64,000 bases of DNA from positions 7,795 through 71,794 of IMG/VR virus record IMGVR_UViG_3300009712_000884. The stretch is one strand, 5' to 3'. The position numbers and the translations under genes were made by a program. The notes beneath the pieces were generated by a model, which was given only the letters and a program-made list of their open reading frames with translations, did not search any database and had not been told where the DNA came from. This DNA is from a virus. Lineage: Duplodnaviria; Caudoviricetes. This document shows positions 10,333 through 39,475 of this stretch, piece after piece (within the stretch, counting starts at the first letter, position 1; each line of letters opens with the position of its first letter).

Positions 10333-12666
10333 ATGAATTGTGATAACTGTACATTAAAAGGAAATTGTCAAGTTTTTGGAGAAGGTCCTCAGGATGCAAA
10401 GCTTATAATTGTAGGAGAAGCACCTGGTGTAACAGAAGTTAAAGAAGGTAAGCCATTTGTTGGTGCAGCCGGGCAAGTATTAAACAGTGTATTAGAAAGG
10501 GTAGGCATTAAGAGAGAAGAATGTTACATTACAAACGCAGTAATTTGCCATCCGTTTTCAAATCAAACACCGACATTAAAAGAAATAAAGTGTTGCCGAG
10601 AGAGATTAAAGAAAAGTATTTTACAAAGGAATCCCAAGTTAATAATTGCAATGGGTAATGCTGCATATTGTTCATTATTAAACAAGAGCCATGTAAGTGG
10701 TGTAATGGAAAAGCGAGGTTTATTTTTCCAGAGTGATGAATTTGGTTGTAAGATACTAGTAACAATTCATCCAGCAGCAATATTAAGAGACAGAACTTTA
10801 TACAGTATATTTATTGAAGATATGTTAAGAGGAGCTCGTTATTTTAAAGCTGACATTACTGCATTACAGTCAAAGAGAGAGTATGTAGCACTAGAGACAG
10901 TTGTAGAAGTACAGACTTTGTTAAAAGAATTAAAAGAAAGACAGGTTTTTGCATTTGATATTGAAACAACAGGGTTAAATCCATGGGAAGATCAAGTATT
11001 AAGTTATGCATTTTGTTTCCAAGAGAAAAAAGCTTATTGTATTTTTACTGACGTAAGAGACAACACATGGGAAAAAGATGAATGGCAAGTTCTCGAAAGC
11101 GAGATAAAGCAAGTACTTGAGTCATCAAAGCTTATAATTCAGAATGCATTATTTGAATTACCATTTCTAAAAGTAAGTAAGGGTTGGAATCTTCGTTGTT
11201 ATTTTGACACTATGTTAGCTCACCATTTACTTGACGAGAACGCAAAAGGACAACATGGTTTAAAAAAGCTTGCAACCAGATTTCCTGATTTAATAGATTA
11301 TGCACATGAAGTTGATATTACACAATTAAGGTATCTTGATAATGTAAGATTTGTAAATTACACATGTAGTGATGTTGATGCAACCTGGAGGTTATATAAC
11401 ATGTTTAGTAAGCAACTCGAGGAAGAAGGATTGACATGGTTATTTAACAATATTACAATGCCTCTTACATATGTACTTACTAATATGCATGTGTATGGTA
11501 TAAAAGTTGATGTTGATTTACTATTGCAATTAAAGACAGCTTATGAAAGTGAACTCAATGAACTTATTAATTGGGTCAAGGATACATATGGTGATTACAA
11601 TTTAGCATCACCCATGCAACTCAGTGAATTACTTTATGTAAAGCTAGGGTTACCAATGATAGATAAAACAACAGCAGGTAAACCTTCTACAAACGATAAA
11701 ACATTAAAGAAACTGTTAGAGCAAGTAACAAGTGAACAAGAGAAAGAATTATTACAAAAGGTATTAAGATTTAGAAAGGTATTAAAGTTATACAAAACAT
11801 ATGTAGTTGGTATTGCAAAGAGAGTCAACAGAAAAACTGGGAGATTGCACACTGAGTTTTTAATTCATGGTACAAAGACCGGGCGTTTATCATCAATAAA
11901 TCCGAATTTACAGAATACCGCCGGTGAAAAAGAGATAAAGAATTTATTTATTGCAGAAAAAGGTTGGAAATTAATTGAAGCAGATTACAAACAGCTGGAA
12001 TTTAGGATATTCATGAATTATGTAAAAGACGAAAAAGCATTTGAAGATTTAAGAAGAGGATTTGATGTACACCGTGTGGTTGCAGCACGTGTATTAAATA
12101 AATCTTATGAACAAGTAACTGACGAAGAAAGAACAACTGCAAAAGGTGTTGTATTTGGTTTATTATATGGTATGTCGACTGAAACTTTGGCAGAGGTATA
12201 TAATTTACCTTTTAACAAAGCTGAAGAATTTGTACGAAGTTTTTGGCGAATGTATCCGAAAGCAAAAAAGTGGTGGATTGATTTACGAGAAAGTTTAAGA
12301 AAGAAAGGATTTGTAGTTAACTTGTATGGAAGAAAAAGAAGGTTACCTGAGATATTTAGTAACAATACTACAGTAGTTGCTACTGCATTAAGACGAGGTA
12401 TTAATGCACCTGTACAAGGTGGTGCAGTTGACGTTGCAAACTATGCACTTATACAAATTTACCAGTATTTGATAAAGAATAAGTATCAAGCACATCCTTT
12501 GTTACAGATACATGATAGTATAATACTTGAAGCGCCGGATGAAGAAGTAGAAGAAGTAGTTAAGATAGTAAGACAATTAATGACTCAGAATATTCCAGGT
12601 ATTAAAGTGCCTCTGGAAGTTGATATAAATGTAGTTGAAAGATGGGGTGAAGAAAACACAGTATAA
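10333..12666 (+). CDS. polA: Family-4 uracil-DNA glycosylase-like domain fused to family A DNA polymerase with 3'-5' exonuclease
   Basis: CDNC..GEAPG..PFVGAAG..HPAA (UDG-4); FDIETTG and DTMLAHH (exonuclease); TGRLSS..PNLQN, ADYKQLEFRI, AKGVVFGLLYG, QIHDS (PolA motifs). Confidence 0.95.
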   Translation: MNCDNCTLKGNCQVFGEGPQDAKLIIVGEAPGVTEVKEGKPFVGAAGQVLNSVLERVGIKREECYITNAVICHPFSNQTPTLKEIKCCRERLKKSILQRNPKLIIAMGNAAYCSLLNKSHVSGVMEKRGLFFQSDEFGCKILVTIHPAAILRDRTLYSIFIEDMLRGARYFKADITALQSKREYVALETVVEVQTLLKELKERQVFAFDIETTGLNPWEDQVLSYAFCFQEKKAYCIFTDVRDNTWEKDEWQVLESEIKQVLESSKLIIQNALFELPFLKVSKGWNLRCYFDTMLAHHLLDENAKGQHGLKKLATRFPDLIDYAHEVDITQLRYLDNVRFVNYTCSDVDATWRLYNMFSKQLEEEGLTWLFNNITMPLTYVLTNMHVYGIKVDVDLLLQLKTAYESELNELINWVKDTYGDYNLASPMQLSELLYVKLGLPMIDKTTAGKPSTNDKTLKKLLEQVTSEQEKELLQKVLRFRKVLKLYKTYVVGIAKRVNRKTGRLHTEFLIHGTKTGRLSSINPNLQNTAGEKEIKNLFIAEKGWKLIEADYKQLEFRIFMNYVKDEKAFEDLRRGFDVHRVVAARVLNKSYEQVTDEERTTAKGVVFGLLYGMSTETLAEVYNLPFNKAEEFVRSFWRMYPKAKKWWIDLRESLRKKGFVVNLYGRKRRLPEIFSNNTTVVATALRRGINAPVQGGAVDVANYALIQIYQYLIKNKYQAHPLLQIHDSIILEAPDEEVEEVVKIVRQLMTQNIPGIKVPLEVDINVVERWGEENTV

Positions 12667-13037: not shown

Positions 13038-13238
13038 ATGATAAAAAAGTTATTTTCTAGATGGTTATACGAAAAAGTTTGTAAATGGCATTTAAAGAGA
13101 TACATAAGAAAACAAAGACAAGCATTAAAAAGAGAGTTGGTTGGTCAGTTGAATGAAGCGTTAAGAGAATTTGATGTTAAAACAAAAGAAGTGTTTTCTG
13201 AGATGTTTACTTGTGATAATAAAAAGGAGATAGAATGA
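13038..13238 (+). CDS. Hypothetical protein
   Basis: RBS upstream; ATGA overlap with queD. Confidence 0.5.
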   Translation: MIKKLFSRWLYEKVCKWHLKRYIRKQRQALKRELVGQLNEALREFDVKTKEVFSEMFTCDNKKEIE

Positions 13239-13579
13239 AGATAAGAACTGAAAGAACTATTGCAGTTGCACATTATTTACCTGACTACAATGGTCCATGT
13301 CAAAATTTACACGGGCATAACATTAGAGTAGTAGTTGAAGTTGAAGGAGAACTTGATAATGAAACACATATGATAGTTGATTTTGCAGCAATAAAATCTA
13401 TTATAAATCAGTATGATCATAGGTGTTTAAATGATTTCGGGTTATATCCTACCGCCGAAGAACTTGCAATTAAAATAGCGAGAGAAGTTAAAGAACTAGG
13501 AAGTAAGATTGAGTATGTAAAAGTACGTGTATATGAAAGCAAGGATTCTTATGCTGAATATGTATGTGCTAATAGTTAA
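13235..13579 (+). CDS. queD: 6-carboxy-5,6,7,8-tetrahydropterin synthase
   Basis: AHYLP...CQNLHGHN, VDF, DHRCLN, PTAE, VYES. Confidence 0.9.
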   Translation: MKIRTERTIAVAHYLPDYNGPCQNLHGHNIRVVVEVEGELDNETHMIVDFAAIKSIINQYDHRCLNDFGLYPTAEELAIKIAREVKELGSKIEYVKVRVYESKDSYAEYVCANS

Positions 13580-13588: not shown

Positions 13589-14065
13589 ATGTATATAAGC
13601 CAAAGAAAGTTTTTCAAGGATTTACGGAGTTTTGCAAAGTATTTCAAAGATATAATTAAGGATAGTGATTGTATTTGTTGTATAAGTAGGGGTGGTTTAA
13701 TAATGGGTGTATATTTATCACACAAGTTTAATAAACCTCTTATAATTGCTGCAAAAGAAAAGAACAGGTGGCAGTTTCTTGGTGATATAAACAACTATAG
13801 AAAGTTTTTAATTGTTGATGAAATATGTGACAGTGGTGTAACGATTGAGGAAGTTTGTTGTAGTTTAAGTACAAGAGTATCAAAACCAGCTTTAATGATA
13901 CCTTGTGTTTTATATGCAAAGTTAACAGATGCATTAGTTTTTGATGAAGGACGTTTTTGGTCAAGTATATTTAATATGAAAGCTTTTCGTTTAGTTTCTA
14001 ATAGATGGATAACATTTTGGTATGAAGGAAAACAGAAAAGAGAAAAAGGAGGGAAAAACGGCTGA
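13589..14065 (+). CDS. Type I phosphoribosyltransferase (purine PRTase-like)
   Basis: ISRGGL and the PRPP-binding loop LIVDEICDSGVT; WITFWYE near the C-terminus. Confidence 0.8.
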   Translation: MYISQRKFFKDLRSFAKYFKDIIKDSDCICCISRGGLIMGVYLSHKFNKPLIIAAKEKNRWQFLGDINNYRKFLIVDEICDSGVTIEEVCCSLSTRVSKPALMIPCVLYAKLTDALVFDEGRFWSSIFNMKAFRLVSNRWITFWYEGKQKREKGGKNG

Positions 14066-14147: not shown

Positions 14148-14513
14148 ATGCTGCTTAAAATTATAGAAAGGAATGGCTTATATTATTGTGAAATACAAAT
14201 TGCTGAAATACTTGATAGAAAGAAATTAAACAGGTTAATTAAGAGATATAAGTTTAAGGAAACAAGTGATCCTACTGTTTATTTTAGCGAAGGTGATGTA
14301 GAAATAAAGAGAATAAAAAGAAGGAGAAAGAAAAAAGTAAAGGTGACAAATAAAAACAAGACAATAAGTAAGTGTGAGCACTGTGGATCTTTTAGTATTA
14401 AAAGAAAAGAGATAAAAGTAAGAAGTTGGATTTCTCTTTGGAAATGCAAAGAGTGTGGATGGGAAACATTATATGTAATACCAGAAAGAGAAAGAGTAGA
14501 AGAAATAAAATGA
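14148..14513 (+). CDS. Hypothetical protein with C-terminal Zn ribbon
   Basis: CEHCG...WKCKECG. Confidence 0.55.
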   Translation: MLLKIIERNGLYYCEIQIAEILDRKKLNRLIKRYKFKETSDPTVYFSEGDVEIKRIKRRRKKKVKVTNKNKTISKCEHCGSFSIKRKEIKVRSWISLWKCKECGWETLYVIPERERVEEIK

Positions 14514-15232
14514 AAATAAGAGCGTATTGGCATCCAGGTGAGAATTTTGGTGATAGATTAACACCGATTATAGTAAGTTATATTACAAATAGAGAGGTTG
14601 TAAGAAGATTAGATTCTCCAAGATTGTTTTGTGTTGGAAGTATTATAAGTAATGCAAAACCAGGAGATGTTGTTTGGGGAGCGGGAGTAATTGTTCCTGA
14701 ACAGTTGGAGAATATTGATAAGGGAGTAAGATTTGCAATGGTCCGTGGTCCTAAAACAAGAGAAATTTTAGTCAAGAAAGGTTTTGATGTACCGGAGTTT
14801 ACAGCAGATCCCGCAATGTTGTTATGTGAAATATATAAAAATTTCAGTGTGGAAAAAAGATATAAGGAAGGTCTGATTCCACATGTTCTTGCATATGAAA
14901 GTGTAAGGAGAGATAATCTTAATGCATTTGTCATAAATCTTTCCAAGCCTATAGAGGAAGTTATCAGGGATATTTTGTCTTGTGAAAGGATATACTCAGA
15001 ATCTTTACATGGTCTTGTCTGTGCGGAGGTGTTCGGAATACCTGTTGTTTTGAAAACATTTTGGAATCATAAATTTGATTTCGAGTGGAAGTTTGAGGAT
15101 TACTATTTGTCAACGGATAGAAAAATAGTTCGTTCTTTTGAGGAATGGGAAAAACCAAGAGTGGATATGGAAAAAATAAAGAGTAGTTTTCCGTGGGAAG
15201 TCTTACCCGTCGAGGACGAATGGATATGGTAA
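14510..15232 (+). CDS. Polysaccharide pyruvyltransferase family protein
   Basis: NFGDRLTP, VGSI, VRGPKT, ADPA, SESLHGLVCAEVFGIP; start moved to ATG 14510. Confidence 0.8.
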   Translation: MKIRAYWHPGENFGDRLTPIIVSYITNREVVRRLDSPRLFCVGSIISNAKPGDVVWGAGVIVPEQLENIDKGVRFAMVRGPKTREILVKKGFDVPEFTADPAMLLCEIYKNFSVEKRYKEGLIPHVLAYESVRRDNLNAFVINLSKPIEEVIRDILSCERIYSESLHGLVCAEVFGIPVVLKTFWNHKFDFEWKFEDYYLSTDRKIVRSFEEWEKPRVDMEKIKSSFPWEVLPVEDEWIW

Positions 15233-15277
15233 ACTAAAGAAAAAACGAGAACAGAGAGTTCTTAATAGGAGGTAAAA

Positions 15278-16111
15278 ATGAAAACTGGTTTTATTGTACC
15301 AGTAAAATATCTAGAAAAGTTTGCAGTGCAAAGTGATTTTCATTTGATTTTACCACATATTGTTGAGCAGAGTGAAAAATATAAAAAATTTTATATGGAA
15401 AGAATTAAAGAAGGTGATTTTGTAATGCTAGATAATAGTATTTTTGAGCTTGAGGTAGCTTATCCGAAGGAGAAGTTACTTGATACAGCTCTTGAAATAG
15501 GGGTACAAGAGATGGTTGTTCCCGAGGTTTTAAGGTCAAGTCATGGAAGTTTAGAAAAAGTTGAGGATTTTTTTGATTATATAGCGAACAGTCATTTACC
15601 AAAACATTTAAGATTTGCTATTACTGTACAAGGTAAATCATTTAGAGAGATGATAGCATATGTTTCTGCACTTTTGACATCTTTTGAATTTCATACATTA
15701 TGTGTACCTTTTGATATAGATTGTGAGATTCCAGGCGCACCTTGTTTTCAATCATCAACATTACAGAGAGTAGTAAATCGTATATATTTTTGTGAGCATT
15801 TGAGAGAAAAGTTTCCTTCATTATGTTCAACAAAACAAGTACATTTACTGGGTTTAGCTGACGGTGTAGAGTTGCAACATTACACATTAAATTGTGCCGG
15901 ATTTTCTTTTATTAGAAGTAATGATTCATCTTCTGCTTTTGTACATGGTTTACATGGGATTAAGTATACAGAAAGAGGATTACCTTGTGAAAAGATTGTA
16001 GAAAAGCTTGACTTTTTTATGGATACAGATTTAACTTGCGACAGAGTTGAGTGTATTCAGTATAATATTATAATGCTGAAGAAATTTACTACTGGAGTAA
16101 ACAATGGATAG
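15278..16111 (+). CDS. TGT-fold base-exchange enzyme, DpdA-like (7-deazaguanine DNA transglycosylase candidate)
   Basis: MLDNSIFEL, VVPEV, TVQG, HLLGL and RSNDSSSA align with TGT/DpdA motifs (DSG, PD, VQG, HxLG, DSS); lies among que genes. Confidence 0.6.
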   Translation: MKTGFIVPVKYLEKFAVQSDFHLILPHIVEQSEKYKKFYMERIKEGDFVMLDNSIFELEVAYPKEKLLDTALEIGVQEMVVPEVLRSSHGSLEKVEDFFDYIANSHLPKHLRFAITVQGKSFREMIAYVSALLTSFEFHTLCVPFDIDCEIPGAPCFQSSTLQRVVNRIYFCEHLREKFPSLCSTKQVHLLGLADGVELQHYTLNCAGFSFIRSNDSSSAFVHGLHGIKYTERGLPCEKIVEKLDFFMDTDLTCDRVECIQYNIIMLKKFTTGVNNG

Positions 16112-16409
16112 AACGAATGACGACGAAAGGAAATTTTTATTAGAGCTAGGTAAACAGATTGGTAAGTTTATTTGTAAGTATTTTGATAAACATGGTGCTG
16201 AAAGAGCATATTATGAGTTTGTTGTTGTTTGTCATGTGTTGGATAATGATTTTCAAAAGGTTAGAGAGGTTGTGTTATTTAACGATAGTGAATCAGGTTA
16301 TTGTATTTTTTGTAGGGGATTAACATATTATTATGACACACAGTTTTCGGGTTATTTGTGTGCTGAATGTTATAAAAAGTTAAAAGGAGGTAAAAATGAG
16401 AAGGAGTAA
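16104..16409 (+). CDS. Hypothetical protein with Zn finger
   Basis: CIFC...CAEC; overlaps both neighbours. Confidence 0.55.
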   Translation: MDRTNDDERKFLLELGKQIGKFICKYFDKHGAERAYYEFVVVCHVLDNDFQKVREVVLFNDSESGYCIFCRGLTYYYDTQFSGYLCAECYKKLKGGKNEKE

Positions 16410-16863
16410 AAGATATGATTTAAGATTGTTAGGTCAAGGTAAGAAGACACAGTACAGGTTTACTGAACCTATGTATGAAATTATTGAAACTTTTGAAAAT
16501 CCTGCTCCGGAAAGGAATTATACAATTAAAGCAGTTACAGATGAAGTAACAGCTCTATGCCCTGTTACTTCTCAACCTGATTATTACACTGTTGTTATTA
16601 AATATGTTCCCGACGAGAGATGTGTTGAATCAAAGTCACTTAAACTGTATTTATTTGCTTACAGACAGTATGGAACTTTTATTGAGACAATGGCAAACAA
16701 GATTCTTAGTGATCTGGTAAAGGCTTGTGAACCACGGTGGATGCGTGTATCATTAACAATGAAACCTCGTGGTGGTATTTTACTAACTACTACGGTTGTA
16801 CATGCAAAGAAGGGTTATGAAACAGTTGGTAAACAAATTTATCAATACAAAGTTAAAGTATGA
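16396..16863 (+). CDS. queF: NADPH-dependent preQ0 reductase (type I)
   Basis: Catalytic LCPVTSQPD plus the QueF signature VESKSLKLYL; PRGG. Confidence 0.9.
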   Translation: MRRSKRYDLRLLGQGKKTQYRFTEPMYEIIETFENPAPERNYTIKAVTDEVTALCPVTSQPDYYTVVIKYVPDERCVESKSLKLYLFAYRQYGTFIETMANKILSDLVKACEPRWMRVSLTMKPRGGILLTTTVVHAKKGYETVGKQIYQYKVKV

Positions 16864-16872
16864 GGAGATAAG

Positions 16873-17103
16873 ATGATTTGTTCTAGATGTCAGATTTGTA
16901 AAAGAAGAAACTTTGACTTGTTTCTTGTTGACGGGGAGTGTGTTTGTTCATATTGTATGAAAATCGAAAGTTTAGTTAAAAATAGAGAAAAATTCATAAT
17001 CAGTCTGTTTTTATTCTTTTTGGAAAAAAGAAAGGTAGTTTTAATGAATGTTGTTTGTGCTTGTAAGTCTTTTTTATTCGGAAGAAAACATAGAAGGAGG
17101 TAG
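16873..17103 (+). CDS. Small Cys-rich hypothetical protein
   Basis: GAGGAG RBS; CxxCxxC...CxCxxC. Confidence 0.45.
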   Translation: MICSRCQICKRRNFDLFLVDGECVCSYCMKIESLVKNREKFIISLFLFFLEKRKVVLMNVVCACKSFLFGRKHRRR

Positions 17104-17104
17104 A

Positions 17105-17554
17105 ATGAGAATTTATTTAGCTCATCCTATTTCGGGTACAAGTTTTTCTACTACAGCACGGTATTTTTTGAAAACAGCGAAGGTTTTACGAAAGATGGGG
17201 TATAAAGTTTTACATCCTTTAACGGGAAAAAAAGAATTGAGGTGTGAATTAGAGTTGAAAGCCGAGGGTTATCAACATCCTGTAGCTACAAATCATGCAA
17301 TTGTTAGAAGAGACAAGTGGTCGGTTGAGCATTCTGATGTCTTTTTCTTGAATTTGGAAAATGCTACTGATATTTCTGTAGGTTGTGTAGCAGAACTGGC
17401 GTGGGCATATGCTAAGAATATTCATTCTGTAGTGGTGTTACCAAAACAAAGTAAAATGCGTCATGCTTTTGTGTTAGAGATGTCAGATGTTATATTTGAG
17501 ACAACTTCTGAAGCACTGAAATATTTGAGACGGTTGATAAAACAGCGGTTATAA
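17105..17554 (+). CDS. Nucleoside 2-deoxyribosyltransferase / nucleotide N-hydrolase (NDT/Rcl-like)
   Basis: IYLAHPI, IVRRDKWSVEHSD, SVGCVAELAWAYA; start at ATG 17105. Confidence 0.7.
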   Translation: MRIYLAHPISGTSFSTTARYFLKTAKVLRKMGYKVLHPLTGKKELRCELELKAEGYQHPVATNHAIVRRDKWSVEHSDVFFLNLENATDISVGCVAELAWAYAKNIHSVVVLPKQSKMRHAFVLEMSDVIFETTSEALKYLRRLIKQRL

Positions 17555-17577
17555 TGATTAATTACAAGGAGAGCAAA

Positions 17578-18204
17578 ATGAACATAGAAAGACACAAAAG
17601 AGCACAGTTGATAGAAAGTATAGAAGGATTGTTTGAAATGGTTGCTAAAAACAATATAGATAAGATTAAGGAACTGCTTGATAAAGGTGTTGATGTAAAT
17701 GTACAGGATCCATACGGTTATACACTACTTCATACAGCTATGTATTGGTGTCTTACGGACATGATCAAACTTTTACTCGATTATGGGATAAAGGTGGATA
17801 GAAGAGACGAGTATGGTCGTACGCTACTTTATTTTGTTGTACACAATGAATACACGAGCATAGCTAAACTTTTACTTGACTACGGAGCTGATGTAAATAT
17901 AAGGGACGCTTTTGGCTGGACACCACTTCATGAAGCTGCATATTATGTCAGTCCAAATACAGCCAAACTTCTACTTGAGTATGGGGCTAATCCTAACACA
18001 AAGAATGATGAAGGTAAGACACCGATAGACCTAGCAAAAGAAAACGGTTGTGACAATATAGTTCAGTTATTAGAAGAATACAATAAACCTTGGAACCAGA
18101 TAGAAAGAGAATTCGGTAAAATAGAGTTGTCAGAGTATGAAAGACAAAGCTTAAAGTTAAGTCGAATTTCACAGAAAAAGTTAAAAAAGAGGAGGATGCT
18201 ATGA
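17578..18204 (+). CDS. Ankyrin-repeat protein with KRAQ leader
   Basis: Repeats GYTLLH, GRTLLY, GWTPLHEAA, GKTPIDLA with LLLDYGADVN; start at ATG 17578 (AAGGAG RBS). Confidence 0.93.
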   Translation: MNIERHKRAQLIESIEGLFEMVAKNNIDKIKELLDKGVDVNVQDPYGYTLLHTAMYWCLTDMIKLLLDYGIKVDRRDEYGRTLLYFVVHNEYTSIAKLLLDYGADVNIRDAFGWTPLHEAAYYVSPNTAKLLLEYGANPNTKNDEGKTPIDLAKENGCDNIVQLLEEYNKPWNQIEREFGKIELSEYERQSLKLSRISQKKLKKRRML

Positions 18205-18653
18205 GACCAGAACTGGATATGAAGTTGGTTAGAAGTTTTCCTAAGATATTTAGGGATAGACACGAATCACCCACGAAGACAGCTATGTGCTGGGGTTTTA
18301 TGTGTGGCGATGGATGGTATGCTTTGATTTACACTCTTTGTAGTCTTATACAGGAATATATTGATAAGAATAATTTATCACAAGTTGTAGCTGTTGAAGT
18401 TAAGGAAAAATATGGTGGTTTAAGATTTTATACAGACTATGAAGATGATGTAATTGGAAGTTATATATGGTTTGCAGAAGAAATGTCGTGTAGAATTTGT
18501 GAGGTGTGCGGAACAACAGTAAATGTTAAACAACGTTTACTGGGTAGGTGGATTTATACACGTTGTAATAAATGCTGGCAAAAAGAAACTCGGCGAAAAA
18601 AGTCAAAAAACAGTTGTTTAAATTCTAAGAGTAAGAAGCGAAGTAAAAAGTAA
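18201..18653 (+). CDS. Conserved phage hypothetical protein
   Basis: CGDGWYALI, VKEKYGGLRFY and CEVCG pattern familiar from large phages. Confidence 0.55.
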   Translation: MRPELDMKLVRSFPKIFRDRHESPTKTAMCWGFMCGDGWYALIYTLCSLIQEYIDKNNLSQVVAVEVKEKYGGLRFYTDYEDDVIGSYIWFAEEMSCRICEVCGTTVNVKQRLLGRWIYTRCNKCWQKETRRKKSKNSCLNSKSKKRSKK

Positions 18654-18666
18654 AAAAGGAAGAGTT

Positions 18667-19152
18667 ATGAAACGGTTTGTAAATGCAAGAATAAAGCGAG
18701 TTATTGCAACTAATAATGAAATGTTTTTTAAGCAAATAAAAGAGATTGCAGACGAAGCTTATAAGGAAGGTAAATTAACATCTGTTTTAACAAGTGAAAG
18801 TATAATAAGAAAGGAATATGAAAAAAAGAGATTGTTTGTAGGAGTCTTTGATGATCATGTCATTGGTTTTGTTCATTTTCGTGTTAGACGAGACGGTGTG
18901 TTAAGAATTTATGAGATTGCAATTAAAAAATGTTTTAGATATTCGGGTAAAGGTTTCGGAAGTCTTCTTATTACTGAATTACTAGCGAAAGCCGATGTTT
19001 CACGAGCCATGCTTTTATGTAGTCTAAGAAACCATGAAGGTATTTGTTTTTGGTTGTCATTAGGTTTTATTCCATGTAGAATAATTCAAAGGTGGAATAA
19101 ACGAAAACAGCGTTACAGTTATTTTGTTCTTTTTGAAAAAAGAAAGGAATAA
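18667..19152 (+). CDS. GNAT-family N-acetyltransferase
   Basis: IGFVHFRVRRDG..IYEIAI..SGKGFGSLL..FWLSLGF. Confidence 0.75.
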   Translation: MKRFVNARIKRVIATNNEMFFKQIKEIADEAYKEGKLTSVLTSESIIRKEYEKKRLFVGVFDDHVIGFVHFRVRRDGVLRIYEIAIKKCFRYSGKGFGSLLITELLAKADVSRAMLLCSLRNHEGICFWLSLGFIPCRIIQRWNKRKQRYSYFVLFEKRKE

Positions 19153-19157
19153 GAAGT

Positions 19158-19979
19158 ATGAGACTGGATACTCATTGTCATCTTGGACATAGTTATGAAG
19201 GTAAAGTAAAGAGATCACAACCATGTAGTACTCCTGAGGATGTAATGGCGTTTTTTGAAAAAGAACAGATTACACATGCATGTGTAATCTATTTACCAAA
19301 CGAAGTTTATTTACTTGAATCTTTGTTGAAGTTAGCCGAAGAAAAAAAAGTTAAAATATATCCTTTTCAATGGATAGATACTTATAAGGAGAAGATATAC
19401 GAGTGGGATGCGGGTGTAAAATTACATCCTGTACGTGGAAGTAAGATAAGTCCATTGTCAAGTGTTGCGGGGAGATTTTTTAGAAAACTACCATCTGGTT
19501 TCAAAGTTTTAATACACACACAAGGTAGTTCTTCTTTGAAGAATATTAGTCGACCTCAAATGGTATTATCATTGTCTTTAAGACATCCAGATAAGATTTT
19601 TATTGTTGGTCATTCAGGAGCATATGGTTTTCGGTCATTTAGACCTTCTCAAACATCTAATGTTGAACTGTGGGAAAGATATTATCATTCAAAATTGTTA
19701 ATAAATGAAGCCGAGTTTGTTGCGTTGGTGAGAGATAATGTATGGTTGGAGAGTTCATATGTAAAGAAATATTTAATGTTCAAGATAAAGTCATTGTGTT
19801 ATAGTTATCGGATACATGGAAGAGTATTACTGGGAAGTGATTTTCCTTATTTAAAAGAAATAAGTAGTATTGTTGATCAAGAAAGGTGTTTGATGGAGGA
19901 TGGTGGATTAACGGAGGAAGAAATTAAGCAGATGCACTTAAATGGTATAAAGTTAATAGAAGGTGGAGGTGTGTTGTGA
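19158..19979 (+). CDS. Metal-dependent amidohydrolase (amidohydrolase_2/TatD-like)
   Basis: DTHCHLG, VKLHP, VLIHT, VGHSG, LLGSDFPY. Confidence 0.8.
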   Translation: MRLDTHCHLGHSYEGKVKRSQPCSTPEDVMAFFEKEQITHACVIYLPNEVYLLESLLKLAEEKKVKIYPFQWIDTYKEKIYEWDAGVKLHPVRGSKISPLSSVAGRFFRKLPSGFKVLIHTQGSSSLKNISRPQMVLSLSLRHPDKIFIVGHSGAYGFRSFRPSQTSNVELWERYYHSKLLINEAEFVALVRDNVWLESSYVKKYLMFKIKSLCYSYRIHGRVLLGSDFPYLKEISSIVDQERCLMEDGGLTEEEIKQMHLNGIKLIEGGGVL

Positions 19980-20740
19980 TACAGAGTCGAGATTACGGTT
20001 CGTTTTGGAAGGCAATGAATTTGGTAGGACGGTTAACAACAGTACCACTGGAAGTTGAGTTTGGTAAACAAAAGGTGATTTATACACCACCACAAGACAT
20101 ACAGATATCTAAACAGCTTTTTAGATCAGCAAAATGTCAATGTTGTGGTAAGTGCTGTTCTGGTTATTCAACAAATAGATATAATTTGGTGTTTTTTAAT
20201 CCACCGGCATTTTTAGACGGAGAATACAGAAAGAGAGTATTTGAGGAGGTTTTTAAGATAAACGGTGTTGTTTATCCGGTATGGATTTATCGTCAGTCTG
20301 GTAATGTGTGTGACTTTTCAGTATACAGGTGGATTTATCGACAAGTTGGTAATGTATACAACCATTTTTCATATATGGACAACGGACATGTTTATTGTTA
20401 CATACATTCTTTTAAACCAGTACACTGTTTGTTTCCACCAATTTTTATTGATAGTCGAAAAGACAAGTCAATTGTTTTAAAAAGACCATTTTCAAGAAAT
20501 TGGCAATTTGGTTGTAAAGTACAGTTTTTACCATTTGATTATCAAGAATTTGTAGAATGGGATCTCCATGTGTTTGAAGAGTTAAAAAAGTTGGTTGATA
20601 TACTAGGTTTGTCATCTTTTTCAGACTGTGAACTACTTTATGATTTTTTATGTAAATTGAAGCTTACTAACAAACAGACTACACAGATTATTTTGGCGAA
20701 AAACATACATTTGAAAGACGAGAATAACAATCTTTTTTAG
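19976..20740 (+). CDS. YkgJ-like CxxCxxCC Fe/Zn-chelating protein
   Basis: CQCCGKCC...CDF...CYIHSFKPVHCLFPP. Confidence 0.65.
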   Translation: MIQSRDYGSFWKAMNLVGRLTTVPLEVEFGKQKVIYTPPQDIQISKQLFRSAKCQCCGKCCSGYSTNRYNLVFFNPPAFLDGEYRKRVFEEVFKINGVVYPVWIYRQSGNVCDFSVYRWIYRQVGNVYNHFSYMDNGHVYCYIHSFKPVHCLFPPIFIDSRKDKSIVLKRPFSRNWQFGCKVQFLPFDYQEFVEWDLHVFEELKKLVDILGLSSFSDCELLYDFLCKLKLTNKQTTQIILAKNIHLKDENNNLF

Positions 20741-20757: not shown

Positions 20758-21447
20758 GTGTTAATGAAGATACACTCAATTTTTCAAGCATGTGAAGGAG
20801 AAGGTCAAGAAGTAGGAATAATAAAGACTTTTATTAGAACACAGGGTTGTTCTGTTGGTTGTCGTAATTGTGATACTCCTACTGCAGTAAATTTTAATCA
20901 AGGACAGTTAGTGGATACAAGCTGGATTGTTAAAGAAGTGGAGAGTTATCCTTGGAAAAGAGTAACGATAACAGGCGGTGAGCCGCTTGAACAACCTGAT
21001 ATATTAAATCTTTGTCATGAGCTTAGAAGCAAGGGATATTTTGTTACACTTGAAACTTCGGGACAGATTTATAACGAAGATGTATTTGATTGTTGTTCAT
21101 TTTTAAGTGTGGATGTAAAAACACCTTCAACTGGTGTTGGAATTGATTGGGATATTCATCGTCGAATTTTGAGTAGATATGGCGAGAAAACACAGATAAA
21201 AGGAGTTGTTGAGATTTTAGAGGATTTTAAGTTTATAAAGAAATATTATGATAGGTTTTTTACAATGGAAAGAATTCTTACTCCTTATCAGTTGGTTATT
21301 ACTCCATGTTGGAAAGTAAACCAGAATATGGTTGATGTAGATTTTATACAATATCTTTTATCATTGATTTTTCAGAAGAAGATATTTGTTCGTGTGATTA
21401 TTCAACAGCATAAGTTAGTTTATGGTAGTCAAAAGGAGAATGTATGA
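20758..21447 (+). CDS. queE: 7-carboxy-7-deazaguanine synthase (radical SAM)
   Basis: IF..EGEG, FIRTQGCSVGCRNCDT, TGGEPL, LETSG, DVKTPS. Confidence 0.88.
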   Translation: MLMKIHSIFQACEGEGQEVGIIKTFIRTQGCSVGCRNCDTPTAVNFNQGQLVDTSWIVKEVESYPWKRVTITGGEPLEQPDILNLCHELRSKGYFVTLETSGQIYNEDVFDCCSFLSVDVKTPSTGVGIDWDIHRRILSRYGEKTQIKGVVEILEDFKFIKKYYDRFFTMERILTPYQLVITPCWKVNQNMVDVDFIQYLLSLIFQKKIFVRVIIQQHKLVYGSQKENV

Positions 21448-21769: not shown

Positions 21770-22249
21770 ATGAAAATGATAAATTGTGTAATATGTAATA
21801 AAGAAATGAGAGTGTCAGAAAATACACGAGCAGGTGTTTGTAGTAGTTGTATACAAAGTGGTCGTTTTTCAAAGTGGTATCGCGAAAGATATGCAAAAGG
21901 TGAATATTTGTTGAGTAAAATGGCAGAAATGCAAATTGATGACCCGGAAAAAGCTTCGACGACATATAAAGAACCTGAAGCTGAAAAGATTAAGACGAAA
22001 AAGAAAGTCATATTACAACAAGGAAAATCACGTTCAAAGAGAATAAAAGAATTGTTGTTACAAGGTTATACAGATGTGGAAGTGTTAGCTACTGTTAAAC
22101 AAGAGTACTCAAGTGTTGATGAGCGAAGGTTAAAAGATCATATTTCAGCTGAAAAAAGTGAATTGAAGAAGAAAGGGTTGTTAAATGTAAATGTTGTATT
22201 GAGTCAAAAGGAGATAAAAAATGAAGGACGTGCAGAGTCGGCAACCTGA
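21770..22249 (+). CDS. Hypothetical protein with N-terminal Zn finger
   Basis: CVIC...CSSC; start at ATG 21770 (AAGGAG RBS). Confidence 0.5.
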   Translation: MKMINCVICNKEMRVSENTRAGVCSSCIQSGRFSKWYRERYAKGEYLLSKMAEMQIDDPEKASTTYKEPEAEKIKTKKKVILQQGKSRSKRIKELLLQGYTDVEVLATVKQEYSSVDERRLKDHISAEKSELKKKGLLNVNVVLSQKEIKNEGRAESAT

Positions 22250-23012
22250 TATTTCAAAGAATGTTGACAAGGTTGGTATAAGGGAATTGTTACTTCCTTA
22301 TACAGTTTCAATGAAAGGTGGAGGAATACAGCATACAATTGCTAATGTTTCTGCGTACGTTACTCTTACATCTTCATTCAGAGGTACCCACATGTCCCGT
22401 ATTGTACAAATATTACATAGTTACATTGATAAATCAATAAGTTCAGATTTTATTGACAGAGTGTTACAAGACTTGTGTAATAGATTATCAGCTCCCTCTA
22501 GTTATGTGAAAATGCGATTTCCTTATTTGTTAAAAAAGAAAGCACCTGTATCAAATACCGAAGGTTATATGACATATACATGTTGTTTTGAGGGTGAAAG
22601 GGTAGATGGTGCTGTAAAGCATTTATTGACCGTCGAAGTACCATATATGTCTTTGTGTGAGTGTAGTAAAGAGATCTCTGATTATAATGCACATAATCAG
22701 AGATCAACAGCAAAAATAACCGTGATGTACAGAAAAGAAAATACTGTGTGGATTGAGGATTTGATTGAATTGGTCGAAAAACACGCGAGTTCTCCTGTGT
22801 ATTCGATATTAAAAAGAGAAGATGAAAAGTATGTAACTGAGCACAGCTATAAACATCCTAGATTTGTTGAAACCATGGCAAGACGATTGTATAAGGATTT
22901 ACAGAATGATAGTCGTGTTTTAGGTTTTGTAGTTGTTGTTAATCATTGTGAATCAATACATCAACATGATGCTGTGGCTGTGATTCATGGTGGTTATGTA
23001 TATATTCCATAA
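22221..23012 (+). CDS. folE2: GTP cyclohydrolase IB
   Basis: VGI, RGTHMSR, SLCECSK, AHNQRS, KREDEK, PRFVE, ESIHQHDA. Confidence 0.92.
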   Translation: MKDVQSRQPDISKNVDKVGIRELLLPYTVSMKGGGIQHTIANVSAYVTLTSSFRGTHMSRIVQILHSYIDKSISSDFIDRVLQDLCNRLSAPSSYVKMRFPYLLKKKAPVSNTEGYMTYTCCFEGERVDGAVKHLLTVEVPYMSLCECSKEISDYNAHNQRSTAKITVMYRKENTVWIEDLIELVEKHASSPVYSILKREDEKYVTEHSYKHPRFVETMARRLYKDLQNDSRVLGFVVVVNHCESIHQHDAVAVIHGGYVYIP

Positions 23013-23027: not shown

Positions 23028-23513
23028 GTGATTATTAATCCACAAGTTGTAGTAGAAAAAGGTTGGATAAGAAATTATATTGAAGAATGTATTCAACCTA
23101 ATAGTATTGATGTTCGTTTAGACCGTTTGTTTCGAATTGATGTAGCCGAAGAGTCTTTTAAAGGCCTTGTTTTGGGTCGGGATACACGAGAGCTTCCTGC
23201 ATACATAGAGGAGTTTCCCGATGAAAAAGGGTTCTTTTATATTAAACCTTTTGTTCCATACCAGTTTCTAGCTTGTGAGTTTGTTTCATTACCTGAAGGT
23301 GTTGCAGCTCGTTTACATGTAAGAAGTACTTTAAATAGAGCTGGTGTGTTTATTAGTGCAGGATGGTGGGATTCAGGTTTTAAAAATTATGTTGGTGCAA
23401 GTTTTTGTTCTTTCGCACCGGCGAAGATAGAAAGAGGTGCAAGGATTGCACAGATCGTTTTTATAGAAGCAGGTTGTGTAAAGTTGTACGACGGAATATA
23501 CAATGTTAAGTAG
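23028..23513 (+). CDS. Trimeric dCTP deaminase/dUTPase family protein
   Basis: IQPNSIDVRL, RSTLNRAG, WDSGF, RIAQIVF. Confidence 0.8.
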   Translation: MIINPQVVVEKGWIRNYIEECIQPNSIDVRLDRLFRIDVAEESFKGLVLGRDTRELPAYIEEFPDEKGFFYIKPFVPYQFLACEFVSLPEGVAARLHVRSTLNRAGVFISAGWWDSGFKNYVGASFCSFAPAKIERGARIAQIVFIEAGCVKLYDGIYNVK

Positions 23514-29150: not shown

Positions 29151-31131
29151 AGGATTAGGTGGTTATCAAAAGAAAGCAGAACTTGACTTCAGTAATCTAG
29201 GTCTTGTGTTGCTGGACGGAGAAAATGGTTCTGGAAAAAGTTCGATTCTTGATAGTTTAACATGGATTTTGTTTGATAAGACTGTTAGAGGTGTAAGTAA
29301 AGATGGCTGGTTAAATGAGACAACACAAAAAGGATGGGGAACTGTTGTTTTAACAGGTGATAAGATATATGAGATTACAAGAATAAGAGATAGAAGTGGT
29401 GTAAAGTTGATTTTGAAAGAAGACGGACAGGAGATACAGTTAAGGAGAACACAGGATAGTCAAGAGTATGTAGAGGAAAAGATCGGTTCATATGATCTTT
29501 TTGTGAACAGTGTGATGTTCGGTCAGGGTGATCTTCTTGAACTTGCATTTGCAACAGATAGTAGAAGAAAAGAGATAGTTGGTGAATTGCTAGGTTTTGA
29601 TGAAATCGATCATGTTCTTGATGTATTAAAAGAACAGTATCGTTTGGTTGAGCTTGCTATTTCATCCTTAGATACTATTTTGTTTCAGTATAAACATCAG
29701 CTAGAAGAGTTAAAATATGTTACTGAAGAGTCTTGGTCAAAGGTTGATAAAGATATTGCTGATGTAGTGTTACAACTTGAACAAGTAAAAGCTACAAGAG
29801 AAACGATAGAAAAGAAAAGTTTACTTTTAAAGGAATGTAAAAGATATACAGATAAAATTGAGCAGCTAGAGAAACAGTTGTTACAAAAATCTGAGTTAAG
29901 TCAAAGGTTGGAAGAACTTAAATCACAGTTGTCTGTGTTTGCAGAGTGTGAAGCAAAGCGTGTTGTAGTTGAGAAACAGTTGGAGCAGATAACAGATGAA
30001 CTTAATGCGTTGTCTTTTGAGAAAGGACAGTTTGTTTTTTTACAGGATTCGTTGCAAGAGAAGATACAGCAATTGACAAAGATTGAAGGTCAGTGCCCAA
30101 CATGTTTACAAACATTATCAGAGGTAAAGAGACAAGAAATTCTCACTAAGTTACAGGGTGAGTTAAATAAAATATATGTAGACATGGAAAAAATAAATGA
30201 GAATTTTGTTATAAAGAAGAATACACAGGATGAGTTGAAGAAAACTGTACAGATGTTAAAAAATCAGTTAAAAGTTGTTAAACAGCTTGAAGCAGAACAT
30301 GCTGTTATTGAAGAAAAACTTAAGGTGTTAAATCAGTGTGAAGATGAATTAAATAGACTTAAAGAAGAAATTACACAACTAGTTATACAGGTTCCTGAAT
30401 TGTTACAAGAGAAGCTAGTTGAGCAGATACAAGATATGTTATTACAGTTGGAATGTGAATTACAGAAATCACAATTACAAGAGACAGAGTTGCAGGAGAG
30501 AAGATTAAATCTAGAAAAAACGAAGGCACGAATTGAAAGTCGGCTTACTATGAAAAACGAATTTAGTAAGAAAGTAAGCAATGTAGAGGTTGAATATACC
30601 AAACGGAAAGAGCAGCTACGACATTTAGAGTTTTTGGTTGATTTACTTGGTTTAAAAGGTGTGAAAAATATTGTACTGGGGAATGTAATTCCTTTTCTTG
30701 AGAAGGAGATGAACATTTATCTAGGTTTTTTGTTACCACAGGTTAGAGTCGAGTTTTCAACACAAAGACAAGGTAAAAATAAAGCTTATAATGAATTTAC
30801 AATAAACTTGTTTGAATATGGTAATGAAAATAGCCGTGATTTTAGATTATGGTCTGGTGGTGAAAAAATGCTGATTTGTCTCGCTCTTAGGTTTGCGTTG
30901 TGGAGAATGTTACATTTGTTTGGAAGAAGACCTCTTGATATCTTGTTTCTTGACGAGGTATTTGGATGTCTTGATGATATACATAGAGACAAGGTTTTTG
31001 AGTTTCTTGAATGGCAGCAACATGAATTACAGATTCCAATAATTGTAGTTGAGCATATACCAGAAATAAAAGAGAGGTTTGGTTTTGTTTTAAGTGTAAG
31101 AAAGGGGTTAAATGGCAGCGAAATCGGTTGA
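29125..31131 (+). CDS. sbcC: SbcC/Rad50-like ATPase
   Basis: GENGSGKS, coiled coil with CPTC hook, signature WSGGE, LFLDEVFGCLD, VEH. Confidence 0.92.
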   Translation: MKIQRLSFEGLGGYQKKAELDFSNLGLVLLDGENGSGKSSILDSLTWILFDKTVRGVSKDGWLNETTQKGWGTVVLTGDKIYEITRIRDRSGVKLILKEDGQEIQLRRTQDSQEYVEEKIGSYDLFVNSVMFGQGDLLELAFATDSRRKEIVGELLGFDEIDHVLDVLKEQYRLVELAISSLDTILFQYKHQLEELKYVTEESWSKVDKDIADVVLQLEQVKATRETIEKKSLLLKECKRYTDKIEQLEKQLLQKSELSQRLEELKSQLSVFAECEAKRVVVEKQLEQITDELNALSFEKGQFVFLQDSLQEKIQQLTKIEGQCPTCLQTLSEVKRQEILTKLQGELNKIYVDMEKINENFVIKKNTQDELKKTVQMLKNQLKVVKQLEAEHAVIEEKLKVLNQCEDELNRLKEEITQLVIQVPELLQEKLVEQIQDMLLQLECELQKSQLQETELQERRLNLEKTKARIESRLTMKNEFSKKVSNVEVEYTKRKEQLRHLEFLVDLLGLKGVKNIVLGNVIPFLEKEMNIYLGFLLPQVRVEFSTQRQGKNKAYNEFTINLFEYGNENSRDFRLWSGGEKMLICLALRFALWRMLHLFGRRPLDILFLDEVFGCLDDIHRDKVFEFLEWQQHELQIPIIVVEHIPEIKERFGFVLSVRKGLNGSEIG

Positions 31132-32365
31132 TAATAAAGCGAAGCTTTTATTTGTTGGTAATTCTCCTACTATTTTACACAGTGGACAGTCAGTTGTTTC
31201 AAGAGCTTTGTGTGCTCGTTTATCTCAGGTTTTTGAACTAGCTGTAGCAGGTTGGGGTTATAATGGAGAGGTACATGGTTTTCCATTTCATATTTATCCA
31301 TCAAACTATGAATGGTGGCGAGTTATCAAAGATTTTAAACCAGATGTATTGTTTTTATCTCATGATGTATGGAGATTTGCACAGTTAGTCTCTGTTAGAA
31401 AAGAATATCCAGATTTGAAGATTGTTGGATATTTTACTATTGACGGTGATCCATTACCTGGTTCGTGGATTCCAATTCTTAATTGTTGTGATCTAGTTTT
31501 AGTTCCTTCGCGTTTTGGGAAAGAAGTTATTGAGGAAAGATGGACAGTAAAACCAGTACTTGTTGTACCTCAAGGTGTTGAACCTTTTTTCTTTGTTGAC
31601 GCCGGCGAAGATAAAGAAAACTTAAAAAAGGAAGTTGACGAGAAAACATTTAAAATGGCTTCAGAGTTAAATAGAAGTGAGAAAGACATGATTTTGTATA
31701 GTAATAAGTTTGTTGTATTTTTTTGTGGCATGAATCAAACAAAGAAAAATATTGGTACAATTCTTGATGGTTTTACTGAGTTTGCACATGGTAAGAATGA
31801 TGTATGTTTGAATTTAATTTTACATAGCCATGTTTTTTCACAGTTTGGTCTGGAGACAGTTGGTGATTATGATGTTCGTGATATGTATTCTTGGATGTCG
31901 GAGAGAGATAAAATATATCTTGTTGATGCAGCAGTTAATGATGATACTTTGAAGAGTTTTTATGGTGTTGCTGATGTGTTGTTGTCGCCTTCTATTGGTG
32001 AAGGATTTGGACTGTTTGTTCTTGAAGCAATGGCAGCAAAGGTTATACCTATTTTAACAGAGTATTCTGCTTTTATTGAGTGGCCAGATAGAAATGCAAT
32101 GTTTTTAATGAAACCTGATGCTCTTTTTCGTTCATACTGGAATGTAAATAGAGCGATTGTAAGTAGTGATACAGTTGCTAGAACATTGGAAAGAGCTTAT
32201 ACAGTTTGGAAGTATGCTCCTGAACGCTGGAGGAAGATGCAGGAATTGAATCAACAGCGAGTATTAATGTTTACTTGGGATGTGTGTGTGCAGAAAATTG
32301 TACCAGTACTTGTAAAGTTGATAAATGGTGAAATTTTTATAAAAACCGGAGTAAAAAGATTATGA
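31112..32365 (+). CDS. Glycosyltransferase, GT4-like (GT-B)
   Basis: ADVLLSPSIGEGFGLFVLEAMA; NQTKKN. Confidence 0.88.
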   Translation: MAAKSVDNKAKLLFVGNSPTILHSGQSVVSRALCARLSQVFELAVAGWGYNGEVHGFPFHIYPSNYEWWRVIKDFKPDVLFLSHDVWRFAQLVSVRKEYPDLKIVGYFTIDGDPLPGSWIPILNCCDLVLVPSRFGKEVIEERWTVKPVLVVPQGVEPFFFVDAGEDKENLKKEVDEKTFKMASELNRSEKDMILYSNKFVVFFCGMNQTKKNIGTILDGFTEFAHGKNDVCLNLILHSHVFSQFGLETVGDYDVRDMYSWMSERDKIYLVDAAVNDDTLKSFYGVADVLLSPSIGEGFGLFVLEAMAAKVIPILTEYSAFIEWPDRNAMFLMKPDALFRSYWNVNRAIVSSDTVARTLERAYTVWKYAPERWRKMQELNQQRVLMFTWDVCVQKIVPVLVKLINGEIFIKTGVKRL

Positions 32366-36872: not shown

Positions 36873-36873
36873 G

Positions 36874-37749: not shown

Positions 37750-37909
37750 GGGAAGAGGAGACAGGTGTATTATAAGACCGAGAATGAGAATGCATTGTTT
37801 TATTGAAAAAAACATGGCAACAAGAATTGAGAAGGATAAAAGAAGAAAATGTCGAAAGAGAATTAAACAGGAATTTCAAAAGGAAATAGCTGAGTATGTT
37901 TGTAAATAG
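37742..37909 (+). CDS. Small basic hypothetical protein
   Basis: AGGAGAG RBS before ATG 37742; K/R-rich. Confidence 0.45.
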   Translation: MSKGRGDRCIIRPRMRMHCFIEKNMATRIEKDKRRKCRKRIKQEFQKEIAEYVCK

Positions 37910-37918
37910 GAGGAAATT

Positions 37919-39103: not shown

Positions 39104-39165
39104 AATTGATATTAAGATTCAGTATAATATATAAAAAGTGTAAAATAAAAACAGAGAGGTGTTAA

Positions 39166-39474: not shown

Positions 39475-39475
39475 T

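Follow-up and report, generated by a model that had tools for sequence, protein, structure and literature searches.

The 64,000-nucleotide stretch of DNA analysed here (the window) comes from an uncultured phage and carries genes for synthesis of preQ1 and for its insertion into DNA, interspersed with genes for several further enzymes. The question raised by this locus is which of these enzymes tailor the inserted base, and whether the product is one that has been described before. An earlier note had predicted an undescribed, possibly acetylated, preQ1 derivative from four co-oriented genes, for a pyruvyltransferase, a GNAT acetyltransferase, an amidohydrolase and a CxxCxxCC Fe/Zn protein. 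The starts of all four ORFs were confirmed, as were their shared orientation on the + strand and their location between QueD and QueE. From the gene content, the window probably encodes a DpdA3-type 7-deazaguanine DNA-modification system that is tailored by a homolog of DpdM.

All the genes named below by coordinates, other than those of a glycosylation island, lie on the + strand. The preQ1 pathway is complete in the window. GTP would be converted to the free base preQ1 by FolE2 (GTP cyclohydrolase IB; 22221-23012; PF02649, 7.5e-84), QueD (6-carboxytetrahydropterin synthase; 13235-13579; PF01242, 4.5e-28), QueE (radical-SAM CDG synthase; 20758-21447; PF04055, 1e-10, and PF13353, 6.5e-9), QueC (preQ0 synthase; 43190-44092; PF06508, 2e-62) and a unimodular QueF (preQ0 reductase; 16396-16863; PF14489, 6.4e-27). 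QueC is encoded about 22 kb away from the cluster, with its PF06508 match at G000:51164-51823, which is 43370-44029 of the window. The predicted DpdA3-type 7-deazaguanine DNA transglycosylase (P0003; 15278-16111), which would place the 7-deazaguanine in phage DNA in exchange for guanine, was identified by tblastn matches to the founding DpdA3 sequences of CP220 (2e-14), immuto_2-6A (annotated 'DNA guanine transglycosylase', 6e-12) and phiST (CGPG_00065, 9e-6) over 87-92% of its length. In alignment A4 it retains the LDNS.FE, HLLG and DxS blocks. It has no Pfam TGT match, an absence already described for DpdA3 (PMC10516641). Two other genes of the cluster are recurrent neighbours of DpdA3 among 162 DpdA3 loci that we surveyed in IMG/VR: homologs of the phosphoribosyltransferase (PRTase; 13589-14065; PF00156, 9.6e-8) occur in 45 loci, including immuto_2-6A gp211, and homologs of the dCTP deaminase/dUTPase-like protein (23028-23513; PF22769, 9.3e-19) in 34.

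The protein encoded at 19976-20740 (P0002) belongs by sequence to the DpdM family and is a predicted dPreQ1 N-methyltransferase, the activity of the YkgJ/DUF3109-like DpdM (Cui et al. 2023, PMC10516641). The CxxCxxCC motif by which the earlier note had recognized it is indeed present, as C54-x2-C57-x2-C60-C61 (read directly as C54-Q-C-C57-G-K-C60-C61), but its DpdM-family identity had been missed. BLASTP aligned the protein with phiSM DpdM (gp53) over the full length (E 3e-7), and hhalign matched a profile of 49 homologs to phiSM DpdM with 99.6% probability (E 3.8e-24, 193 columns); the homology extends past the 85-aa CxxCxxCC domain. In the alignment of the 49 homologs the conserved cysteines are C54, C57, C60, C61, C112, C141, C151 and C180, those of the motif being invariant or nearly so. 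The last four align with C92, C102, C112 and C150 of phiSM and complete two metal sites; C34/38/41/42/92/102/112/150 of phiSM are the cysteines given for DpdM (PMC10516641). PF03692 was matched by 33 of the 49 homologs, and no Pfam family by the window protein itself at threshold. The AF2 model (pLDDT 85.9) gave three best Foldseek matches in BFVD with probability 1.00, TM 0.54-0.74 and lengths of 214-304 aa; confidence is lower at a 16-residue tandem duplication between Cys112 and Cys141. The spacing CxxCxxCC fits the Cx(2-4)Cx(1-2)CC pattern of the N-terminal DpdM metal-binding motif; it is one residue apart from the CxxxCxxCC of phiSM, and spacing of this motif differs among published DpdMs too (PMC10516641). 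A DpdM-family HMM found phiSM DpdM (1.9e-30) and proteins of the DpdA-encoding loci L004 and L041, each of which adjoins QueF/QueC and is encoded with a QueF-containing preQ1 pathway. For this protein, then, co-occurrence with que and dpdA genes was borne out in phiSM, L004 and L041.

No DpdN, TMK-like kinase or AAA_28 kinase was found in the 64-kb window, which leaves DpdM as the sole recognizable tailoring enzyme there; because completeness of the record is only some 53%, further tailoring genes may lie outside it. Of the 162 surveyed loci, 124 pair DpdA3 with DpdN, a formyltransferase, and only one other than the window pairs it with DpdM. These loci show that the slot beside DpdA3 is a variable tailoring position, taken by DpdN, DpdM, GNATs or an amidohydrolase-like protein. 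We infer the activities and the order of steps from homology and gene content: after insertion of the base by DpdA3, the DpdM-family protein, with its two Cys-ligated metal sites, would methylate the 7-aminomethyl nitrogen to give mdPreQ1. Because a DpdM homolog is encoded together with FolE2, QueD, QueE, QueC, QueF and DpdA3, mdPreQ1 is the expected product. A tailored preQ1 derivative is thus predicted, as the earlier note had proposed, but by way of DpdM, and the base is one already described.

Several other genes of the block appear to be bystanders to this pathway. Promoter and terminator signals that would divide the block between 12.5 and 24.5 kb do not rise above chance, so the co-orientation of its genes demonstrates only a shared transcription class. 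The GNAT (P0125; 18667-19152; PF00583, 2.2e-7, and PF13508, 6.4e-7), the polysaccharide pyruvyltransferase-like protein (14510-15232; PF04230, 5.5e-15), the nucleoside 2-deoxyribosyltransferase-like (NDT-like) protein (17048-17554; PF05014, 3.2e-8) and an unrelated ankyrin-repeat protein that breaks up the cluster (17554-18204; PF12796, 4.9e-30) lie together in a single long co-directional transcription unit, and nothing ties them to the pathway. Upstream of the pyruvyltransferase-like gene is a small Zn-ribbon protein (14148-14513) with a weak PF07282 match (2.4e-4) below the curated cut-off. Homologs of the NDT-like, ankyrin-repeat and pyruvyltransferase-like proteins were absent from all 162 DpdA3 loci. 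The pyruvyltransferase-like protein matches PF04230 with 56.5 bits (cut-off 25.3) over profile positions 63-274 of 280, and has homologs in Lak megaphages, Cobetia phage Carin-5 and Tunturi_5; the complete genomes of the latter two lack QueC and DpdA3. By the earlier note's own test of co-occurrence, the proposed link of this gene to the que genes is thereby refuted.

The chances are about even that the GNAT and the pyruvyltransferase-like protein serve another process, either host takeover or the 9-kb glycosylation island at 31112-40393 (one GT4, three GT2, a sugar nucleotidyltransferase, a 4,6-dehydratase and a methyltransferase), to which they would contribute sugar N-acetylation and addition of pyruvyl ketals. 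By the Pfam family definition PS_pyruv_trans enzymes use sugars, and the Tunturi_5 homolog, one of those in que-less phages, adjoins a second glycosyltransferase. A single early/middle transcription unit spanning the 12-24 kb block, in which unrelated genes such as the ankyrin gene are interspersed and no operon boundary lies, would explain the location of both genes in the que region. However, they lie 12-17 kb from the island, and the Carin-5 homolog is found among nucleotide-metabolism rather than glycan genes.

The amidohydrolase-like protein (P0001; 19158-19979) is a different case. Searches of Pfam, NCBIfam, PHROGs and PDB sequences gave no significant match to it, and its label derives from a ligand pattern, HxH...K...H...H...D (H6, H8, K88, H120, H152 and D228), from ESM Atlas feature neighbours in PF04909 clusters (score 0.94), from a weak TatD match (E 0.24) and from the alternating beta/alpha pattern of a low-confidence AF2 model (pLDDT 48.5). 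With the Amidohydro_2 (PF04909) and TatD (PF01026) branches of the amidohydrolase superfamily it shares, in the expected order, the N-terminal D-x-H-x-H, the K, H and H, and the aspartate of a C-terminal GSDFP, as well as the predicted alternation of beta and alpha elements; it differs in falling below every family threshold, and its sequence points to no substrate. The superfamily signature has HxH on strand 1, K/E on strand 4, H on strands 5 and 6 and D on strand 8 of a TIM barrel. The ligands are conserved in its single relative (P0009), which is encoded directly after DpdA3 in locus L007, between DpdA3 and an AAA_28 kinase. In the window its stop codon and the start of dpdM overlap in the sequence GTGA, a GGAGG Shine-Dalgarno sequence lies just upstream, and the gene is translationally coupled to dpdM. 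Given this coupling and the position of its single relative after a DpdA3 gene, the protein probably has a role in the pathway, either on a 7-deazapurine intermediate or as an aid to DpdM. It is a real candidate for an accessory enzyme of DpdA3 systems, and the predicted co-occurrence with que/dpdA genes held for it in one locus.

A more specific proposal is that this protein, as an Amidohydro_2-type decarboxylase or hydrolase, draws off a 7-deazapurine intermediate or edits it, for example by converting CDG to 7-deazaguanine as a non-orthologous counterpart of DpdL, or by amide or nitrile hydrolysis, giving a second DNA base besides (m)dPreQ1. PF04909 includes non-oxidative aromatic and nucleobase decarboxylases (ACMSD, IDCase), and the conserved metal ligands, the ESM neighbours and the position of the relative in L007 are in keeping with such an enzyme. 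We nevertheless consider both this proposal and the particular reactions named unlikely, given the lack of a significant family match, the poor structural model, a co-occurrence that amounts to one frame-broken gene on a 3-kb contig, and the presence of QueC, QueF and DpdM, all of which require that CDG flow to preQ1.

Improbable, too, is a three-enzyme module in which the GNAT, the amidohydrolase-like protein and DpdM all act on DpdA3-inserted preQ1 to make a new base such as N-acetyl- or N-acetyl-N-methyl-preQ1, with the amidohydrolase-like family as a new recurrent partner of DpdA3.

A further proposal, following the earlier note, has the aminomethyl nitrogen of preQ1, dPreQ1 or mdPreQ1 acetylated by the GNAT to give an undescribed N-acetyl base, with the amidohydrolase-like protein as the matching deacylase or editor; an acetyl-preQ1 in this phage is possible but unsupported, and we regard it as very doubtful. 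The three genes are tightly packed, with 5 nt between those for the GNAT and the amidohydrolase-like protein and -4 nt between the latter and dpdM, and the GNAT occupies the slot that DpdN takes in most of the surveyed loci. The window protein has the common features of GNAT N-acetyltransferases, with a GNAT fold in its ESM Atlas model (TM 0.75-0.80 to GNAT clusters) and an acetyl-CoA-binding motif A (R-x-x-G-x-G) read as RYSGKGFG. Its best NCBIfam matches, far under the cut-off and no more than a hint, are AAC(6') enzymes, which acetylate a CH2-NH2 group. No acetylated form is described in the papers that we consulted. GNATs also occur in three other DpdA3 operons: L027 (order DpdA3-QueF-GNAT-kinase), L065 (a kinase-GNAT fusion immediately downstream of DpdA3) and L107 (a 508-aa HAD-like+GNAT protein). 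These are unrelated to the window GNAT, however, whose likeness to those of L027, L065 and D479 is confined to motif A (E 5e-5 to 0.06). The protein is an orphan at the subfamily level, with no homolog in 5.8 billion proteins, in a phage database or in the 162 DpdA3 loci. At the domain level, PF00583 is no denser near dpdA3 than elsewhere on DpdA3-bearing contigs: the sequence up to 10 kb from dpdA3, at most 2.2 Mb in all, has it in 2 contigs, and the remainder of these contigs, at least 3.9 Mb, holds 6 matches. The suggested co-occurrence of the GNAT with que/dpdA genes thus has no ortholog to which it could apply, and domain-level enrichment is absent. The block between QueF and DpdM also contains the ankyrin gene and two ORFs of no assigned family, and is missing from L041, where QueF directly adjoins DpdM. 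Moreover, DpdM already gives the window a dedicated tailoring enzyme.

We return to DpdM tailoring of a DpdA3-inserted base as the preferred reading. The finding is mostly that of a known tailoring enzyme, in a combination with DpdA3 that is uncommon. DpdM methylates only 0.01-0.1% of G in phages studied so far (PMC10516641), so mdPreQ1 could be a minor species, with dPreQ1 as the bulk base. In known DpdA3 phages, by contrast, replacement of G is complete; by analogy with these, base occupancy may be high here as well, and this phage lineage is thus one in which mdPreQ1 may have replaced much or all of the guanine in the genome. An mdPreQ1-rich genome, if real, would be useful for studies of restriction evasion and of the DpdM methyl donor, and the amidohydrolase-like protein provides a new and concrete lead to an unassigned step in DpdA3 systems.

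Among known systems, the DpdM/mdPreQ1 system of Cellulophaga phage phiSM and Vibrio phages VH7D, phi-Grn1 and phi-ST2 (Cui, Hutinet et al., NAR 2023, PMC10516641) has in common with the window a full preQ1 pathway (FolE, QueD, QueE, QueC, QueF) with DpdA, and, beside the que genes, a YkgJ-like protein of about 220-250 aa with Cx2-3Cx2CC and four more conserved cysteines. The window differs in having a DpdA3-type DpdA where phiSM or VH7D has another type, in the CxxCxxCC spacing and the 16-aa internal duplication of its DpdM, and in having FolE2 as its FolE. Relative to the known DpdA3/DpdN-type system, the window lacks the DpdN formyltransferase and the TMK-like kinase, and has DpdM as the tailoring enzyme and a unimodular QueF. 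The two share a DpdA3 homolog (26% identical), QueD, QueE, QueF and a PRTase homolog in the cluster, and in both a family A DNA polymerase is encoded close to the que/DpdA3 genes.

By sequence, the CxxCxxCC protein of the window (P0002; 19976-20740, + strand, 254-aa ORF) is a homolog of DpdM, the dPreQ1 N-methyltransferase. This is the main correction to the earlier note, which had placed it with a GNAT, an amidohydrolase and a pyruvyltransferase among enzymes making an undescribed, possibly acetylated, preQ1 derivative. In its published description, DpdM resembles YkgJ/DUF3109 and contains a CxxxCxxCC motif; cysteines 42, 92, 102, 112 and 150 of the phiSM protein are listed (PMC10516641). phiSM gp53, located between QueF and DpdA, has cysteines at exactly these positions, and BLASTP aligned its residues 20-217 to residues 40-254 of P0002 (E 3e-7). 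P0002 has 114 homologs by an exhaustive HMMER search. In an alignment of 49 of the 114, C54, C57, C60, C61, C112, C141, C151 and C180 vary little or not at all, and 33 of the 49 matched PF03692. The profile of this family matched phiSM DpdM with 99.6% probability (E 3.8e-24, 193 columns), and the family HMM did so at 1.9e-30. An AF2 model built from the homolog alignment had a pLDDT of 85.9; in a Foldseek comparison with BFVD, this model matched three viral proteins, listed without names, with probability 1.00, and one of the three is as long as phiSM DpdM (217 aa). The CxxCxxCC motif can be read directly in P0002, which also carries a 16-residue tandem duplication at approximately residues 102-133 (20279-20374), WIYRQSGNVCDFSVYR / WIYRQVGNVYNHFSYM. 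The conserved Cys112 is kept in the first copy only, the confidence of the AF2 model falls at the duplication, and the homologs are without this insert.

The virus record is 71.8 kb long and an estimated 53% or so complete; the window (7795-71794) has a GC content of about 33%, and its + strand carries essentially all genes. Genes for DnaB, a DNA methyltransferase, a UDG-PolA fusion and a DUF6899 protein precede QueD (13235-13579, +). There follow, all on the + strand where coordinates are given, a PRTase (13589-14065), a Zn-ribbon ORF, the pyruvyltransferase-like gene (14510-15232), the transglycosylase P0003 (15278-16111, 277 aa), a 101-aa ORF, QueF (16396-16863), a 76-aa ORF, an NDT-like gene, an ankyrin gene, a 150-aa ORF, the GNAT (18667-19152), the amidohydrolase-like gene (AH, P0001; 19158-19979, 273 aa), the DpdM homolog, QueE (20758-21447), FolE2 (22221-23012) and a dCTP-deaminase/dUTPase-like gene (23028-23513), after which comes a primase. 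QueC (43190-44092, +) lies about 22 kb from the rest of the pathway and at its N terminus extends some 60 aa beyond the Pfam domain. All four genes singled out previously do exist; the GNAT and the pyruvyltransferase-like gene pass Pfam thresholds, and the amidohydrolase label is at the level of motifs only. No promoter- or terminator-like signals dividing 12.5-24.5 kb were found above the shuffled expectation, and adjacency in this region therefore indicates little beyond a common transcription class. A megablast search of phage genomes with the que cluster gave no match.

The TGT Pfam model matched nothing in the genome, P0003 included, as expected of a DpdA3. By tblastn, P0003 matched proteins of immuto_2-6A (a Flavobacterium phage, in which the match is an annotated DNA guanine transglycosylase), Campylobacter phages of the CP220 group and Cellulophaga phiST, with E values of 1e-14 to 1e-5 and coverage of 87-96%; these proteins are founding members of DpdA3 (Cui et al. 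2023, PMC10516641). Searches of IMG/VR for close relatives of P0001, P0002 and P0003 found none. We then collected 162 IMG/VR loci bearing DpdA3, with flanks of 8-10 kb, and searched their six-frame ORFs for homologs. DpdN was found at 124 loci, the TMK-like kinase at 111, QueF at 102, QueE at 83, QueC at 81, the AAA_28 kinase at 46, the PRTase at 45 and the dCTP-deaminase/dUTPase-like gene at 34. Most loci have P-loop kinases next to DpdA3, as do CP220, D479 and immuto. The recurrence of these kinases, the PRTase and the dCTP-deaminase/dUTPase-like gene near DpdA3 suggests that DpdA3 systems may include steps at the nucleotide level. Homologs of the window's NDT-like and ankyrin genes, as of its GNAT and pyruvyltransferase-like genes, occur at none of the 162 loci. 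PolA homologs are present in 53 of them; the family A polymerase of the window (10333-12666) has an N-terminal UDG-superfamily domain, and this UDG-like part is common only to the closest three (L013, L017 and L020).

Among the remaining flagged genes, AH is a real, unexplained lead. Comparison with Pfam, NCBIfam, PHROGs and PDB sequences gave nothing significant, and no close relatives were detected by an alignment-based scan, a scan for the DNA pattern of GHSGAYG or a scan of GTDB genomes. Its feature neighbours in the ESM Atlas are PF04909 clusters (0.94), and an AF2 model from a two-sequence alignment, of low confidence (pLDDT 48.5), has alternating strands and helices. The candidate ligands H6, H8, K88, H120, H152 and D228 are all kept in its single distant relative, P0009 (30% identity). 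The sole relative recoverable with context lies on a 3.1-kb metagenome contig, L007, in the order DpdA3, AH-like gene, AAA_28 kinase (L007:1131-3114). There the DpdA3 homolog is 25% identical to P0003 (E 2e-17), and the AH-like gene begins within its stop region, in the slot after DpdA3 that is held elsewhere by DpdN. A frame break at around position 2164 divides this AH-like gene in two; P0009, which represents the cluster, is whole and has 303 aa. In the window, the AH stop codon and the dpdM start codon share bases in GTGA, and 6 nt upstream lies a GGAGG Shine-Dalgarno sequence. Two independent associations with DpdA3 machinery, at 30% identity and with a co-occurrence of n=1, are suggestive. 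A 274-aa gene before the D479 GNAT was considered as an AH homolog and rejected, because its product has a signal peptide and lacks the ligand pattern.

Acetylation of preQ1 by the GNAT found no positive support and is very unlikely here: besides its absence from the surveyed loci, homologs of this GNAT were found neither in the phage database nor in an index of 5.8 billion proteins. We scanned 133 DpdA3 contigs with PF00583, at a sensitivity verified on the window itself. Two of them, L027 and L107, have GNATs no more than 10 kb from dpdA3, and six matches lie farther off. The density of GNATs is thus at least 0.9 per Mb in the vicinity of dpdA3 and no more than 1.5 per Mb farther away, which shows no enrichment near dpdA3. 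Where GNATs do lie close to DpdA3, the gene layout is striking. In L027 the genes overlap in the order DpdA3-QueF-GNAT-kinase, with a stand-alone GNAT at L027:8118-8615. An AAA_28 kinase-GNAT fusion directly follows DpdA3 at L065:6123-7079, and the DpdA3 operon of L107 encodes a 508-aa HAD/FkbH-like+GNAT protein (L107:3327-4853). These two were the long ORFs with a GNAT domain; no fusion of a GNAT with an amidohydrolase turned up in the 162 loci. The AAA_28 kinase of L007 shares 49% identity with the kinase portion of the fusion in L065 and is cut off at the contig end, where a similar GNAT fusion is possible. With GNATs inside their DpdA3 operons, the phages of L027, L065 and L107 may make acyl-preQ1. 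The likeness of the L027, L065 and D479 GNATs to that of the window is confined to motif A, and the GNATs of L027, L065 and L107 say little about acylation in the window phage.

The proposed link of the pyruvyltransferase to que and dpdA is refuted by the test that the earlier note itself set, co-occurrence of homologs with these genes. Homologs occur in Lak megaphages, Cobetia phage Carin-5 and Tunturiibacter phage Tunturi_5, and the last two, complete annotated genomes, lack both QueC and DpdA3. In Carin-5, which is without que genes, the homolog adjoins a dNMP kinase and a nucleotide 5'-monophosphate nucleosidase (L005:5690-8771). Proteins of this family may take part in modifying DNA or nucleotides in some other way. 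In the window, a plausible though unproven partner is a 9-kb glycosylation island (31112-40393) comprising one GT4 and three GT2 genes, a sugar nucleotidyltransferase, an NDP-sugar 4,6-dehydratase, a class I methyltransferase and two ORFs of no assigned function.

The P0002 family recurs beside other que genes. On one IMG/VR contig (L004) a homolog adjoins QueF within a que operon, and another (L041:6475-9604) has the compact operon DpdA3-QueF-DpdM-QueC, the only pairing of DpdA3 with DpdM besides the window among the 162 loci. QueF abuts DpdM in L041, and the block that intervenes in the window is absent there. That block also holds the ankyrin gene and two ORFs of no assigned function, which, together with its absence from L041, counts against reading it as a module.

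Homologs of DpdN, the TMK-like kinase and the AAA_28 kinase were found nowhere within the window, which leaves DpdM as the sole recognisable tailoring enzyme, and the product predicted from the gene content is mdPreQ1. The expectation of a tailored base is therefore retained, but the recognisable enzyme is the known DpdM and the predicted base has already been described. In known DpdM phages, which have other DpdA types, mdPreQ1 makes up only 0.01-0.1% of G, and DpdA3 phages are fully substituted (PMC10516641). The new aspect of this phage is the pairing of DpdA3 with DpdM.
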